DNA of 64,000 nt, taken from an uncultured Gammaproteobacteria bacterium (GTDB lineage Bacteria; Pseudomonadota; Gammaproteobacteria; CAMYKB01). Numbering within the stretch: the stretch's first letter is position 1; each line of letters opens with the position of its first letter. Below the pieces are notes generated by a model. The model was given only the letters and a program-made list of their open reading frames with translations, was not told where the DNA came from and did no database searches. A program made the position numbers and the translations under genes. The stretch covers positions 12,358 to 76,357 of the forward strand of contig CAMYKB010000003.1 in NCBI GenBank assembly GCA_947258875.1, written 5' to 3'. This document shows, piece by piece, positions 3,423 to 56,761 of this stretch.

Positions 3423-4469
3423 ATGAACGTGCTTCATCGCCAACAGTTCATCGCATTATTGTTGTGCCTGATCATTTCGGCACTTGTCTTTGCTGGTTCC
3501 GCGCGTGCTGGACATGACGGCGCCGCCTATCATGAGTTCTCAGCTGATGCCCGGCAACAGGGCCGCGAAGCGCATCTTGCTTTTGCCTGGACTTACGGTT
3601 TCTATGAAGAGCCTAAGGTTCTGAATTACTTGCGTTCAGTCGGGGCGCGTGTCACTGAGCGCCTGCCTTACCGCATCAGGTTTTATATCCTCGATACAGA
3701 TGATGTCAATGCCTATGCAGCCCCTGGCGGCTGTATTTATGTCACGCGGGGCATGTTGGTACATTTAAATTCTGAGGCTGAGTTGGCAGCGGTGCTGGGT
3801 CATGAACTGGCGCATGTCATGGGTGATATCGGTGGGCTTGATGAGGTGTCCAGGAATACCTTGCGTGCAATGCTCGATGACGGTGCTGAGTTAAATCTTA
3901 GTAATACGGGCGACACTCAGGCACAACCCGATATGTTGCATACTAGGATGCGCAGATACGAGTTGGAGGCGGACCGGATATCGTTCGAGTTGCTGGTGCT
4001 GAGAGGCTATAACGCGCGTGCTCTGATCGATGTAATTCGCATGTTTGACGATTATGACCGCATGGTTAATGACATTCCTAAATCACATGCGCCACACCAT
4101 CAGGGGCTGGTGCACCTGTCCAACATTCATCCCGATAATCAGCGGCGCATTATGATGCTGCAGGAGGCTGTGTCTCGTTTCGATGCACAACATGCTGAAG
4201 ATGGCCGCGGCCGTTATCTGGCAATGATTGAGAATATCCGCTTTGGTAATCAGCCCAATTTAAAGGCAACGGATTCCGCATCGGATTTTCTGCAGAGGCA
4301 TGAAGTACGCAAGTTAAAACTGCTGCGTGTAGAAGGTGGTGCGCGTTATGCCGATCTGGCTGCTGACAGTAGTCTGGGGGATTCTGCCGAAGCCGTGTTG
4401 CGCACCCTGAATCGCGCTTATCCTGTGGGAGAACCTATATCAGGCGAATTTATCAAAATAATCGAATAG
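3423..4469 (+). CDS. M48 family zinc metallopeptidase (secreted)
   Basis: HEXXH motif LGHELAHVMGD. Signal peptide present. Conserved C-terminal tail LRTLNRAYPVGEP shared with the downstream paralog. Confidence 0.8.
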   Translation: MNVLHRQQFIALLLCLIISALVFAGSARAGHDGAAYHEFSADARQQGREAHLAFAWTYGFYEEPKVLNYLRSVGARVTERLPYRIRFYILDTDDVNAYAAPGGCIYVTRGMLVHLNSEAELAAVLGHELAHVMGDIGGLDEVSRNTLRAMLDDGAELNLSNTGDTQAQPDMLHTRMRRYELEADRISFELLVLRGYNARALIDVIRMFDDYDRMVNDIPKSHAPHHQGLVHLSNIHPDNQRRIMMLQEAVSRFDAQHAEDGRGRYLAMIENIRFGNQPNLKATDSASDFLQRHEVRKLKLLRVEGGARYADLAADSSLGDSAEAVLRTLNRAYPVGEPISGEFIKIIE

Positions 4470-4877: not shown

Positions 4878-5924
4878 ATGCGTTGGTTTATAGCTTGCAC
4901 TTGTTTGCTACTGACCGCCTGTGCCACAAGCAATAATGCATTGCAGCCCACTTCACTGGCACCCACCCGTGCTTATGATGCGGCCGATCAGCATCGCAAT
5001 GCTGAGGCCAACGAGCGCTTCAACGAGCTATTCGGCTTCTATGAAAACAAAGCGTTGCATCATTATGTGCGCGCAGTAGGTTCGCGAGTCAGCGCGCACC
5101 TGCCCTACGATTTCAAATTTATTATTCTCGATACGGATTACGTTAATGCCTTTTCGGTGTCGGGTGGAGATATCTATATTACACGCGGCATGTTGGCGCA
5201 TCTCGCTACCGAAGCCGAACTCGCAGCCGTGTTGGCGCATGAGGTTGCTCATGTTGTAACGCAGCACAGTGTGCGGAACCATCAAACTATTCCCGCCACA
5301 CCTAAATTTACCAAGTTTTTCGCGAACTGGTCCGGTACGCAAAAATTTGAGGACGGTGTCAGACAAGGACGGACTTCCGGGGCGGTGCGCGGCGCAGCTC
5401 AGCAAGACGAATTAATGGCCGATCGCCTGGCCATCGATTACCTGAAAAAGAGTGGTTACCAGACTTCCGCCGTGCTGGGTATGTTGCGCCTGATCGAAAG
5501 TGTGCAGCAGCTTGAAAAAGAGCTGGCGACTTATGTTGAAAGCCCAAAATTTAACGGTCAGATGCTTACTGGCCATCCCGCTATCGGGCAACGTTATGCT
5601 GAAGTGGCCAAGTGGACCGAAACCGCGGATGTTGTGCAGAATCAGCGAGATCGTAAGCGTTACCTGGACATCATTGAAGGTATGGAATATGGCAACGATA
5701 TTCAAGATCCGCGCATGTATGCCTTGGGAACCAATGACATGCAACAGCAGCAGTCACAGCAGTTGCGCATCCAAGTGGTTGCAGCGGGTGATGGCGAAAC
5801 ATACGCCGAGCTATCCAGGTATTGCCGCCTGCAAAACAATGCCGAAGCCATAGTACGTACCCTGAATAGGGCCTACCCTGAGGGTGAGCCACAGCCGGGC
5901 CAGCTCGTCAAGATCGTCAAGTAA
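4878..5924 (+). CDS. M48 family zinc metallopeptidase, lipoprotein (tandem paralog of 3423..4469)
   Basis: Lipobox LLTACATS. HEXXH motif LAHEVAHVVTQH. Same length (348 aa) and shared C-terminal motif VRTLNRAYPEGEP. Confidence 0.8.
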   Translation: MRWFIACTCLLLTACATSNNALQPTSLAPTRAYDAADQHRNAEANERFNELFGFYENKALHHYVRAVGSRVSAHLPYDFKFIILDTDYVNAFSVSGGDIYITRGMLAHLATEAELAAVLAHEVAHVVTQHSVRNHQTIPATPKFTKFFANWSGTQKFEDGVRQGRTSGAVRGAAQQDELMADRLAIDYLKKSGYQTSAVLGMLRLIESVQQLEKELATYVESPKFNGQMLTGHPAIGQRYAEVAKWTETADVVQNQRDRKRYLDIIEGMEYGNDIQDPRMYALGTNDMQQQQSQQLRIQVVAAGDGETYAELSRYCRLQNNAEAIVRTLNRAYPEGEPQPGQLVKIVK

Positions 5925-53433: not shown

Positions 53434-53754
53434 ACACGGCCTTTCGGCTAAATAATTCAGGAAATACAATCACATAGTGGCATGCATCGAACCGGTGCGC
53501 GGGGGTTGACAAGTAAATAGTTATATTAGACAATTATTATATTCTGAATGAGAGCTCCTCGTTCTCAACAGAAAAATCCTCCATCCTCCCTTGGTGGTAT
53601 ATTTGGCGCGGCTTCCTACCTATTGGCCGCGCTTTTTTTTTGTCTTAAATTTGGGGTTGTAGCTGGCATTCAGCTTGTATCCCAGGGCTATCTTGGGTAG
53701 TATTGCGCGCCTTCCGTGTGGTGCTGACAGCCAACTTTTGGAGTTTTTTCTCGG

Positions 53755-54637: not shown

Positions 54638-54711
54638 TGGGGGATCGTCTAGTGGTAGGACTGCGGACTCTGACTCCGCCAACCTAGGTTCGAATCCTAG
54701 TCCCCCAGCCA
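54638..54711 (+). tRNA. tRNA-Gln (anticodon CUG)
   Basis: Cloverleaf folded by hand. 7-bp acceptor TGGGGGA/TCCCCCA plus discriminator G and CCA. D arm GTCT-AGTGGTA-GGAC. Anticodon stem GCGGA/TCCGC with loop cuCUGac. T arm CTAGG-TTCGAAT-CCTAG. Confidence 0.85.
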
Positions 54712-54935
54712 ATAAGGAACCCGCCGTCAGGCGGGTTTTTTGTTGGCTGGGGGACGAAGGATGAGAAGCTAGTGGTTCGACAAAATTGCCGGGAGCAATT
54801 TTGAACAGCGGAGCGCAGCGACGCTGGCCCCGCAGGGGTGAGTCTACGCGACTGAGCAGAAGGCGCGCCGAGTAATCCTAGTCCCCCAGCCAATAAGGAA
54901 CCCGCCGTCAGGCGGGTTTTTTTGTTGGCTGGGGA
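54693..54935. repeat. ~61 bp direct repeat of tRNA-Gln 3' end plus terminator (copy 1 54693..54753, copy 2 54874..54935)
   Basis: aatcctagtcccccagccaataaggaacccgccgtcaggcgggtttttt(t)gttggctgggg occurs twice, ~120 bp apart, differing by one T. Confidence 0.85.
54720..54741 (+). terminator. Rho-independent terminator after tRNA-Gln
   Basis: CCCGCC-gtca-GGCGGG followed by TTTTTT. Confidence 0.85.
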
Positions 54936-55678
54936 AGCCTGCGCGGCTGAGCGAAAGAAGTTTGCGAGTTTGCTGCAGAATTGCTTGGGTCAATTTTATT
55001 TGCCATGTTCGTGTGTTCAGCCTTACAGGCTTCTTTCTGTTCACCGAACACTTCACGATCTTTAAAAGTGTGTTTAGCGTTATTGTAAGCAGAGCAATGA
55101 TCCTGCCCTTGTGTCTTTATGTGTAGTGCGGAAGTTACAAGTATGAATTCATTTTGATGCGGGTTGCATAGATGCAAGCATGGGTGTCGCAGTCCGAAAT
55201 AGCATGCGTTTGTAACATGAGTGAATTAATGTGCATTAGCGTGGTAACCGGGGTGAGGTGAAGCGTGAGCTGCAGGTTTAAAGGAAATTACGGTTGCCCT
55301 GGAGCGTGTCAATGCGGCGAACGTAAGCTGTTTGGCTTGCTTTTGTGCTTTTCCGATACAGGCCGTTATCCTGGGAGAGTGACCTCTATCGCATAAATAT
55401 CAGTAAGTTATCGGTGCTACTTGTTAATTTACAGGAGCTTGTTTATACTCATTCGCAACTTGGCATTCATTTTGTTGTTTTTGAACAACAAAATGAATGC
55501 CAAAAAAGGTCTCAATGCGGCTAAACCCGCTTGATACCGAGCAGAAATGTCATTGTTTTCATAAGAAATTAGAACTAACTGTGGTTTTTTTGAGATAAAG
55601 TGTTGCATATTTGTCTGTATGCGACTATAACGTATCTCGACTACACAATCTCATCACTCGTTTATTGGGAGTCTTAAC

Positions 55679-56761
55679 ATGAACAAGAAACTTATTGCAG
55701 TAGCAGTTGCTGCAGCTGTGGCAGCTCCTGGCGCCGCATTCGCAGGTTCAACACTTTATGGTCAGGCACATGTATCCGTTGGGTATTATGATGATGACAT
55801 CTCCAACAACCTCCGCGTTTCCAGTAACACCTCACGCATCGGTGTGAAGGGTTCTGAAGATCTGGGCGGTGGTTTAAAGGCCTTGTATAAGGCTGAATGG
55901 GAAGTCGGTATGTCCGATACATTCCGCGACTTCAGTGGCGCTACCCGTAACCGTGATCAGTTCATCGCATTACGAGGCGGCTTCGGTACCTTTAAGTTGG
56001 GTCGTGAAGACACCATCGTTAAAGTGGTCGGTCGTAAGGTGGATTTGTTCTGGAGCACTCAGGTTGGCCAGAACCGTAGTGTGGCGCGTGGCCTGGATGG
56101 CAAAGACAGCCGCCTCGGTAACACCATTATGTATGCTTCACCGAAGATCGCTGGTGGTTTGACTCTGGAACTTGGTTATAACACGGACGTGAATGCCAGT
56201 AACAATGAGGACGATGTCAACACAAGTGGCGATATCAATAACGATAACGATATGGTCAGTGTAGGTGCTACCTGGGCGAATGGTCCGCTGTACCTTGGGC
56301 TGGCCTATGAATCCCGTGGTATCGATGACGGCGGCTCGCCACTCATCGATAATGCAGATACGATACGTTTTGGCGTTACTTATAAGATCGGTGCCGTGAA
56401 ATTGGCCGGTTTTTATCAGGATGCCACCAACCAGGGTTTTGTTTCTGACTTAGATCGCTCGATCTGGGGTATTGGCGCAGCTTACACCGCCGGTAAGAAC
56501 ACCTTTAAGGCTCAGTACTATGCTGCAGATGAGTTTGATACACCTGTAGGCACTGCCGCTGATACTGGCGAAGCGCTGTTTTCAATTGGCTGGGATCACA
56601 AGATGTCCAAGCGTACCCATACCTATGTTCAATACGCGCAGAATGAAGGCGACAACAACATTGGCCCCCGCCTGGGTGGCAGTGGTCATGCTGAGACAGT
56701 TGTCGGACCAGCAGGCGGCACAGTTTCTGTGATCGACTTCGGTATCCGTCACAAGTTCTAA
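55679..56761 (+). CDS. Outer-membrane general porin (Gram-negative porin superfamily)
   Basis: Signal peptide MNKKLIAVAVAAAVAAPGAAFA. Alternating amphipathic beta-strands. C-terminal ...IRHKF terminal Phe. Long AT-rich upstream leader. Confidence 0.8.
   Translation: MNKKLIAVAVAAAVAAPGAAFAGSTLYGQAHVSVGYYDDDISNNLRVSSNTSRIGVKGSEDLGGGLKALYKAEWEVGMSDTFRDFSGATRNRDQFIALRGGFGTFKLGREDTIVKVVGRKVDLFWSTQVGQNRSVARGLDGKDSRLGNTIMYASPKIAGGLTLELGYNTDVNASNNEDDVNTSGDINNDNDMVSVGATWANGPLYLGLAYESRGIDDGGSPLIDNADTIRFGVTYKIGAVKLAGFYQDATNQGFVSDLDRSIWGIGAAYTAGKNTFKAQYYAADEFDTPVGTAADTGEALFSIGWDHKMSKRTHTYVQYAQNEGDNNIGPRLGGSGHAETVVGPAGGTVSVIDFGIRHKF

Follow-up and report, generated by a model that had tools for sequence, protein, structure and literature searches.

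The 64,000-nucleotide stretch of DNA analyzed here (the window), part of contig CAMYKB010000003.1 in assembly GCA_947258875.1 of an uncultured gammaproteobacterium, carries a direct repeat of the 3′ end of its tRNA-Gln(CTG) gene, and the sequence bounded by this repeat is very likely a tRNA-linked repeat (TLR) homologous to the rrB and RtT elements of Escherichia coli. As a TLR of the rrB/RtT family it belongs to a known kind of element; what is new is the lineage and the host tRNA. TLRs were first seen by Egan and Landy in 1978, and Rudd in 1999 counted 22 copies at 10 loci of E. coli K-12, with 1-5 copies per locus (Stenum et al. 2021, PMC8144298). What marks them out is a 3′ end of 18-19 nt that exactly repeats the end of the upstream stable-RNA gene. 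According to the same source, “TLRs have no known function”; RtT belongs to this group, and the stringent-response role proposed for it was retracted by its authors (PMC8144298). The rrA, rrB and rrF RNAs, encoded by TLRs linked to rrnA, rrnB and rrnD, lie between dual terminators and are made when transcription runs past the first one, T1, which is 87% efficient. These RNAs are processed and bind both Hfq and CsrA, and the binding of rrB to CsrA depends on GGA motifs, two of them in hairpin loops (PMC8144298). The repeated tail of TLRs has been proposed as an RNase E processing signal, and conservation of rrB has been reported within Enterobacterales only (PMC8144298). In the searchable literature, the term “tRNA-linked repeat” appears only in that paper and in an editorial.

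The window element lies on the same strand as its host gene and begins 1 nt past the CCA of tRNA-Gln(CTG), which itself lies 44 nt downstream of the rpsI stop codon, and it ends in 19 nt that match the tRNA 3′ end at 19 of 19 positions (54874-54892 versus 54693-54711). The original prediction had described a repeat of the tRNA-Gln 3′ end, its terminator and a flanking TTGGCTGGGG, with one extra T and about 120 bp between the copies, and our measurements agree with it. A 62-nt direct repeat (54693-54754 and 54874-54935) recurs at a start-to-start period of 181 bp, leaving a spacer of 119 nt (54755-54873). The copies match through the tail AATCCTAGTCCCCCAGCCA, the hairpin ATAAGGAACCCGCC-GTCA-GGCGGG, the T-run and TTGGCTGGGG, differing only by a seventh T in copy 2 (T6 in copy 1, T7 in copy 2), and past the repeat end copy 1 continues with GAC and copy 2 with AAG. 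A near-perfect repeat of about 60 nt far exceeds the chance expectation for 64 kb. The order at the locus is tRNA tail, first terminator (T1), anti-tail, J motif, hairpins P2 to P5, second tRNA tail and second terminator (T2). T1 is composed of the stem strands CCCGCC (54720-54725) and GGCGGG (54730-54735) around the loop GTCA, followed by T6 (54736-54741), and its stem can lengthen to about 14 bp by pairing of AAUAAGGAA with UUUUUUGUU. The tRNA-Gln(CTG) gene was the only tRNA that ARAGORN called at the locus, with no second partial tRNA.

The seed of our covariance model, R1, consisted of the window copy plus four metagenomic units and contained no E. coli sequence; its structure (P1b, P2, P3, P4 and P5) was specified explicitly. 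Within the window R1 found one match, at 54758-54879, with 105 bits, a score that is partly circular because the window copy sits in the seed; the locus holds a single TLR unit (1.3 repeat periods), the only copy in the 64 kb. Units from Dyella, a metagenome-assembled genome (MAG) and Rhodanobacter scored 59-69 bits. The rrB sRNA gene of E. coli, the interval between T1 and T2 of rrnB, aligned to the entire length of R1 with 53.9 bits (E = 8e-18), and each of the four RtT units of E. coli (tyrT/tyrV) was matched as well, at 28-39 bits (E = 1e-6 to 1.5e-10). In rrB the hairpins P2 (loop CGGGA), P3, P4 and P5 (loop CAGGAC) occur as in the model, and behind them, in place of a tRNA tail, stands the 3′ end of 5S rRNA; because this tail is 5S-derived, the rrB match does not rest on tRNA-like sequence. 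The sequences GAAGGATGAGAAGCT, GGTTCGAC and GAGTAATCC are, in addition, common to the window and the tyrT-tyrV RtT of E. coli K-12, outside the tRNA-derived part. The body thus resembles rrB and RtT both in its R1 scores and in shared motifs.

The existing Rfam models describe this family incompletely. The RtT model (RF00391) is narrowly enterobacterial, scoring 133-137 bits on the E. coli units and not reaching the window or its non-enteric relatives; Rfam 15 has no rrB family, and no family came up at threshold on rrB or on seven related loci. AaHKsRNA22 (RF02902, Aggregatibacter) gave a weak collinear match to the inner part, P2-P5, with 20.5 bits in the window and 27.1 bits in the Rhodanobacter caeni locus L046, under its gathering threshold of 39.8, and this sequence likeness suggests that AaHKsRNA22 may be a Pasteurellaceae member of the same superfamily. 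Elsewhere in E. coli K-12, we observed that the 198-nt argV-argY and argZ-argQ spacers contain truncated TLRs, with 13-14 bits to R1 and only J, P4, P5 and the tail.

The spacer and its flanks fold as a structured RNA. For the segment that begins with the anti-tail and ends with the second CCA (54746-54892), the predicted fold has -68.4 kcal/mol (z = -4.9 versus shuffles) and is closed by pairing of anti-tail and tail, and imposing the family-consensus fold on the window copy costs 0.8 kcal/mol (-93.5 versus a minimum free energy of -94.3 kcal/mol). The anti-tail TTGGCTGGGGGAC supplies the 5′ strand of the closing helix P1 (54746-54755 with 54881-54890) and has tail copy 1 as an alternative partner; since TTGGCTGGGGGAC reverse-complements the tRNA 3′ strand, tail, terminator and anti-tail could form a 26-bp hairpin of -52.9 kcal/mol. 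We examined the specificity of the closing helix with model-anchored flanks, which replaced an earlier and noisy test with a fixed 45-nt upstream stretch. The window anti-tail pairs with its own tail at -33.8 kcal/mol, ahead of every foreign tail tested, and forms the strongest closing helix among the units examined. The preference of anti-tails for their own tail over those of other tRNA types was modest globally (p = 9e-5) and clear in well-formed units: in the window, L064, L068, L108, L126, L133, L136 and E. coli, no more than 0-3% of foreign tails equaled the own tail. The elements P1, P1b, J, P2, P3 and P4 are intact in the window copy, and GGA is kept in J (54759), in the P2 loop (54792) and inside P3 (54810), while the GGA of the P5 loop is lost. 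Under the covariance model, the body (54758-54879) belongs to a conserved, covarying family of structured RNAs.

Host genes, copy number and covariation of the family

To place the window locus among its relatives, we collected 80 rpsI loci from reference genomes (best RpsI identity 75% among the matches listed). A tRNA-Gln(CTG) gene directly follows rpsI in 14 of them, and three of these 14 carry a homologous element with a repeated tRNA tail, the other 11 having only the tRNA and a terminator. The three are Dyella marensis, with tails at a 182-bp period and two or more units; a Gammaproteobacteria MAG, with a period of 173 bp and two or more units; and Rhodanobacter caeni (L046), with one degenerate unit after tRNA-Gln. 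Downstream of the latter unit, at 3744-3910 of L046, overlapping weaker R1 matches of 31-32 bits occur on both strands, which suggests an inverted or palindromic partial copy.

A metagenome scan with the pattern of the conserved P2 hairpin gave at least 120 matches, from which 80 loci were kept. At these loci the core lies 35-130 nt downstream of tRNA genes for Ser (TGA, CGA, GCT, GGA), Gln (CTG, TTG), Arg (TCG, CCG, ACG), Tyr, Met, Thr and Asp. The hosts thus number at least 13 tRNA species, and the tail that follows the core is the local tRNA's own, often exact at 19 of 19 positions. Across the loci fetched, 600 kb in all, R1 matched 140 times at E <= 1e-3, and these matches make up our family set. 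In 62 cases a tRNA lies upstream at a distance of up to 130 nt; 23 matches come after another unit, 18 stand just upstream of an intact tRNA and 9 at a contig edge, and among the remaining 28, the orphans, several are truncated or weak antisense matches. Arrays of 2, 3 or 5 units occur (5 in L123; 3.14 at E. coli tyrT). The tRNAs found within 130 nt of copies are on the same strand in 82 cases and on the opposite strand in 2.

Covariation across this set supports the modeled fold. Standard pairs fill 93.0% of cells in the 140-copy alignment versus 73.3% when shuffled, changes on both sides occur at 30 of 31 pairs, and the covariation score is 0.409 versus 0.126 for shuffled alignments and about 0.04 for registers slid by 1-3 columns; these pair counts lean towards structure because the alignment (A5) was fitted to the model. 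An independent MAFFT/RNAalifold run on mixed subtypes recovered covariation in P2, and in P2 only.

About 13 loci, which we call B-type (Table 1), carry a full-length tRNA copy, mostly of tRNA-Ser, whose T-loop is split by the core precisely between GGTTCGA and AATCC. In these copies the acceptor 3′ strand is usually degenerate, and 30-60 nt downstream the same tRNA is present again in intact form. In rrB the 5′ flank of the core is GAGTAGGA, a copy of the 5S sequence just ahead of the repeated tail. We considered whether the core 5′ flank is always a copy of the host T-arm; this holds for B-type and Arg-linked units and is weak for Ser and Gln units including the window, and we do not claim it. 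Placement of the module 18-19 nt from the 3′ end of many stable-RNA genes could have come about by recombination through the conserved T-loop sequence or by an active mechanism. Further, free-standing relatives in the Pseudomonas group have P2-P5 with GGA loops and their own terminator, with GGA in its loop, and no tRNA tail or tRNA nearby; the two listed in Table 1 matched no Rfam family, and the Rfam RsmY model gave only 13 bits on a free-standing relative.

These data extend the range of the family to Xanthomonadales, Pseudomonas-group genomes and many uncultured lineages, with a fold that is now well defined and covarying, and they provide a covariance-model seed for a family missing from Rfam. 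The window locus itself is an ordinary member.

GGA loops and a possible route of expression

Loops with GGA are common in the family. Of 135 units, 117 have ATGGAT, AGGGAT, AGGAT or a similar sequence in the P5 loop, and the P2 loop is CNGGA in 43 of the 49 units outside the search-pattern selection; a GGA loop in P3 occurs in only 3 of 82 units. The SELEX consensus for CsrA is RUACARGGAUGU, and the P5 hairpins GUACAGGGAUGUAC of three loci (L112, L118, L122) fit it. The idea of binding to Csr/Rsm proteins has experimental precedent within the family, because P2 and P5 correspond to the loops mutated in the work on CsrA binding by rrB. The very hairpins with GGA loops through which rrB binds CsrA are retained in tRNA-linked copies outside E. 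coli; the tRNA-linked TLRs of E. coli are without these loops. By analogy with rrB, the family may bind CsrA/RsmA-type proteins, a proposal that seems to us slightly less likely than not. CsrA binding by the rrn-linked copies is the sole functional lead more than 40 years after 1978; it had been considered a trait of Enterobacterales alone that did not extend to tRNA-linked copies, and the old question of TLR function is now directly testable. The serV-argVYZQ tRNA operon of E. coli K-12 (2816000-2819000, L207), to which the argV-argY and argZ-argQ spacers belong, has csrA directly upstream.

The explanation that we consider probable overall is that the locus is a TLR RNA gene working by read-through of T1, tail-directed trimming and CsrA-type binding. 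Polymerase coming from rplM-rpsI-tRNA-Gln would pass T1 in a minority of rounds, and the RNA made past T1 would fold with anti-tail and tail as its closing helix. This RNA would then be freed by the tRNA 3′-end enzymes (RNase E-type cleavage after CCA/AUAAGG) or would end at T2. The product would be a protein-binding sRNA, a CsrA/RsmA-type regulator would attach to its GGA motifs, one in J (54759) and one in the P2 loop (54792), and its effect would be to couple that regulator to stable-RNA and ribosomal-protein transcription. Read-through, tail processing and CsrA-type binding are all modeled on rrB. From the rrB-like layout and mechanism it would follow that the second tail and terminator are the integral functional end of an RNA gene and not a recombination footprint. 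By the same analogy, we lean towards expression of the window element by read-through; no promoter-like site was found between rpsI and the element, and the arrangement with two terminators is that of rrnB, both of which indirectly support co-transcription with the host gene. That the window copy is still fully active seems doubtful.

Several observations weigh against this explanation. P5 of the window is 12 nt longer than that of its relatives, and its loop is without the AUGGAU/AGGGAU motif that 117 of 135 family members carry. The Rfam RtT model matches the window over its full length (54739-54892) with only 18.0 bits (E = 0.21 in 161 nt), which does not reach the gathering threshold of 45; the identities to that model outside the tRNA-derived tail are GGAUGAGAAgCU and CGAGUAAUCC. 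T1 resembles a strong terminator by its fold. A CsrA motif was not found in the 64-kb window, which alone is uninformative on the genome. The tRNA-linked TLRs of E. coli are predicted not to bind CsrA (PMC8144298), overexpression of RttR gave no Csr-type phenotype in biofilm or motility (PMC4606813), and deletions of rrA, rrB and rrF had modest phenotypes. To these are added the lean of the pair counts mentioned above and the nearest relatives with sequence (80-82% RpsI identity), in which rpsI-tRNA-Gln has no element; because of the latter, the window copy could be dispensable or decaying.

In the E. coli rrA, rrB and rrF loci, as in the window, a stable-RNA gene is followed by T1, then by a structured RNA, by 18-19 nt that copy the 3′ end of the host gene, and by T2; the P2-P5 hairpins are homologous, and both have GGA in the P2 loop. 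Unlike rrB, the window element has tRNA-Gln behind rpsI as its host gene and not 5S rRNA, has a 10+5-bp closing helix of anti-tail and tail together with an RtT-type J motif, and is without a GGA loop in P5; the organism is a deep-branching gammaproteobacterium, unlike the Enterobacterales of the rrB reports. E. coli RtT/RttR (RF00391; Egan & Landy 1978; Bosl & Kersten 1991) resembles the window in being tRNA-linked, with a 19-nt tail copy, a tandem unit of about 180 bp and the three motifs named above, but it is linked to tRNA-Tyr, has no terminator hairpin between units, has shorter inner hairpins without GGA loops and overlaps the tpr open reading frame (ORF). The Csr/Rsm sponges (CsrB/C, RsmX/Y/Z, RsmU) have GGA in loops like most family members, in which A-N-G-G-A-U hexaloops sit on GC stems and sites are multiplied by tandem repetition; the sponges, unlike TLRs, have their own GacA/UvrY-type promoters, are not attached to tRNAs and conserve little beyond the GGA hairpins. 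We also considered RsmU of Xanthomonas as a family member and rejected it, as it is an unrelated RNA of the comEA 3′UTR. The E. coli sponge sRNA 3′ETS-leuZ (cited in PMC8144298) is, like a TLR, an RNA from the 3′ trailer of a tRNA transcript, but it base-pairs with RyhB/RybB, has no repeated tRNA tail and shows no homology to the element.

On a broader and tentative view, TLRs may be ancient and widespread CsrA/RsmA-binding modules in the duplicated 3′ ends of stable RNAs (at least 13 tRNA species and 5S), placed in tRNAs between the T-loop halves. Ancestrally they might have informed the Csr/Rsm network about stable-RNA transcription (growth rate, stringent control), and tRNA-linked copies of E. 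coli such as RtT might be degenerate survivors that lost their GGA loops. If this is true, it would follow that the module is brought to its site, 18-19 nt from the host RNA's 3′ end, by some recombination or retro-type mechanism.

Nearest relatives and alternative explanations

The window genome is phylogenetically isolated. Its RpsI has one identical protein among 15 billion proteins, and the next best is 82% identical. The nearest relatives, in which tRNA-Gln lacks the element, have tRNA-free tandem repeats of P2/P4/P5-type GGA hairpins upstream of rplM (L204 1-120, L205 1-59, L202 5-89). In two of these loci, L204 and L205, a resolvase gene lies about 1.2 kb downstream of tRNA-Gln.

One alternative accepts the element as a true TLR by descent and takes the window copy for a non-functional relic, now the spacer of a dual terminator behind rplM-rpsI-tRNA-Gln. 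The copy may indeed be partly degenerate: the lengthened P5 without its usual loop, the presence of a single unit in single copy in 64 kb and relatives that manage without the element all fit this reading. Yet P1, P1b, J, P2, P3 and P4 are intact, the closing helix is the strongest of those examined and R1 gives 105 bits (partly circular for a seed member). Moreover, apart from the extra T, both tail copies and terminators are still identical, which implies recent homogenization or selection. We therefore regard a relic as unlikely.

A second alternative is that the TLR core is a small non-autonomous mobile or recombinogenic selfish module that colonizes stable-RNA 3′ regions at the tRNA T-loop without benefit to the host. 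Such a module would account for the patchy occurrence among rpsI-tRNA-Gln loci and the absence from the nearest relatives, for one core at many different tRNAs with the local tail each time, for the exact position of the B-type core between GGTTCGA and AATCC of a duplicated tRNA gene and for tandem amplification; changes in RtT copies have also been reported in Erwinia (PMC7542023). It accounts less well for GGA loops and junctions that are conserved as well as the stems, for the strict co-orientation with transcription (82:2), for the free-standing versions with their own terminator and no tail in the Pseudomonas group and upstream of rplM in the relatives, and for rrB being a processed, protein-binding RNA (PMC8144298). 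No associated transposase or known mechanism accompanies it. Mobility and function can also coexist, and a purely selfish module appears to us quite improbable.

Finally, the original prediction had favored an integrase footprint at a tRNA gene, seen either as the scar of an excised element or as a minimal attL/attR pair, with tandem duplication as a further option. Direct repeats running from the T-loop to the tRNA 3′ end are typical of tRNA-targeting integrases, and the repeat here is of this type, as in P4-type attL/attR. We searched for integrase or recombinase domains within the window and identified none in the 20 ORFs scanned, which covered 10 kb on either side and ORFs of integrase size; the neighbors are housekeeping genes (COQ7, an Fe-S protein, rplM, rpsI, porin, rpiA and ilvA). 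Matches to phage records covered only the phages' own tRNA-Gln genes, with no attP, and plasmids and viral contigs gave no match to the sequence. The absence of an element after tRNA-Gln in the nearest relatives (L203-L205) fits tail copies that are attL/attR, or the scar of an element using tRNA-Gln as attB, but this reading is hardly credible given a 119-nt spacer with no cargo that is a conserved covarying RNA homologous to rrB/RtT, a repeat that takes in terminator and anti-tail 43 nt beyond the tRNA as a TLR-array unit does, known arrays of 2-5 units, the lack of any integrase or attP, and a layout whose recurrence at 13 or more tRNA species and 5S rRNA would demand many integrase specificities.

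Tandem duplication came nearest of the earlier options, because the locus amounts to 1.3 units of a tandem-repeat family. The original prediction had also held that the same duplication in related genomes, with no island variation, would speak against an att site. Such a duplication without an island is present at the family level (L064, L068, L046), and the nearest relatives are without the element. Presence/absence variation does exist, and it concerns an RNA gene of about 180 bp and not an island. For genome annotation, a repeated tRNA 3′ end should not always be taken for an att site.

Coordinates and other features of the window

Table 1. Features of the tRNA-Gln locus (window positions) and of related loci (positions in each locus)
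Feature	Position	Strand	Basis or remark
tRNA-Gln(CTG), host gene of the repeat	54638-54711	+	ARAGORN; Rfam tRNA 61.7 bits
Tail copy 1, final 19 nt of tRNA-Gln, T-loop A58 to CCA	54693-54711	+	Direct-repeat search
Terminator T1	54712-54742	+	Sequence; fold -20.8 kcal/mol
Anti-tail TTGGCTGGGGGAC, reverse complement of the tRNA tail including GCCA	54743-54755	+	Sequence, fold
P1b 5′ strand AGGAT (partner strand 54875-54879), followed by J motif GAGAAGC and by GGTTCGA	54758-54780	+	GGA at 54759; GAAGGATGAGAAGCT and GGTTCGAC in common with E. coli RtT
Hairpin P2, 9 bp, loop CGGGA, GGA at 54792	54781-54803	+	Covariation at 9/9 pairs
Hairpin P3, CAGCG/CGCTG, tandem G.A/A.G, inner GC/GC stem	54806-54826	+	Model, fold; GGA inside at 54810
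Hairpin P4, CCCC-GCA-GGGG	54828-54838	+	Model, fold
P5 region, aberrant in the window copy	54839-54873	+	Comparison with relatives
Tail copy 2, 3′ strand of P1b/P1, presumed 3′-processing signal	54874-54892	+	19/19 identical to tRNA 3′ end
Terminator T2, copy of T1 with T7	54893-54924	+	Fold -18.8 kcal/mol
Partial second anti-tail TTGGCTGGGGA, end of 1.3-unit array	54925-54935	+	Sequence
Free-standing relative, Phytopseudomonas daroniae	L010 3437-3537	-	Convergent with rpsI
Free-standing relative, Pseudomonas MAG	L015 6284-6378	-	
B-type loci	L099, L109, L121, L122, L143, L144, L147, L149, L152, L153, L159, L085, L095		

Three further features were observed in the window. Downstream of the element, a perfect 20-bp inverted repeat (TTGGCATTCATTTTGTTGTT/AACAACAAAATGAATGCCAA) at 55460-55505 lies just after the region's only sigma-70-like site (55421-55449) and inside a 743-nt untranslated stretch before the porin gene (55679-56761); a role as operator or as 5′-leader hairpin in control of the porin is possible. 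Upstream of rplM, at 53508-53641, a TTGACA-type promoter-like sequence is followed about 100 nt on by a GC hairpin and a T9 run (GGCGCGGC...GGCCGCGCTTTTTTTTT), which could represent a short leader or an sRNA ahead of the rplM-rpsI operon. Two tandem paralogous genes for M48-family peptidases of 348 amino acids occupy 3423-4469 and 4878-5924.

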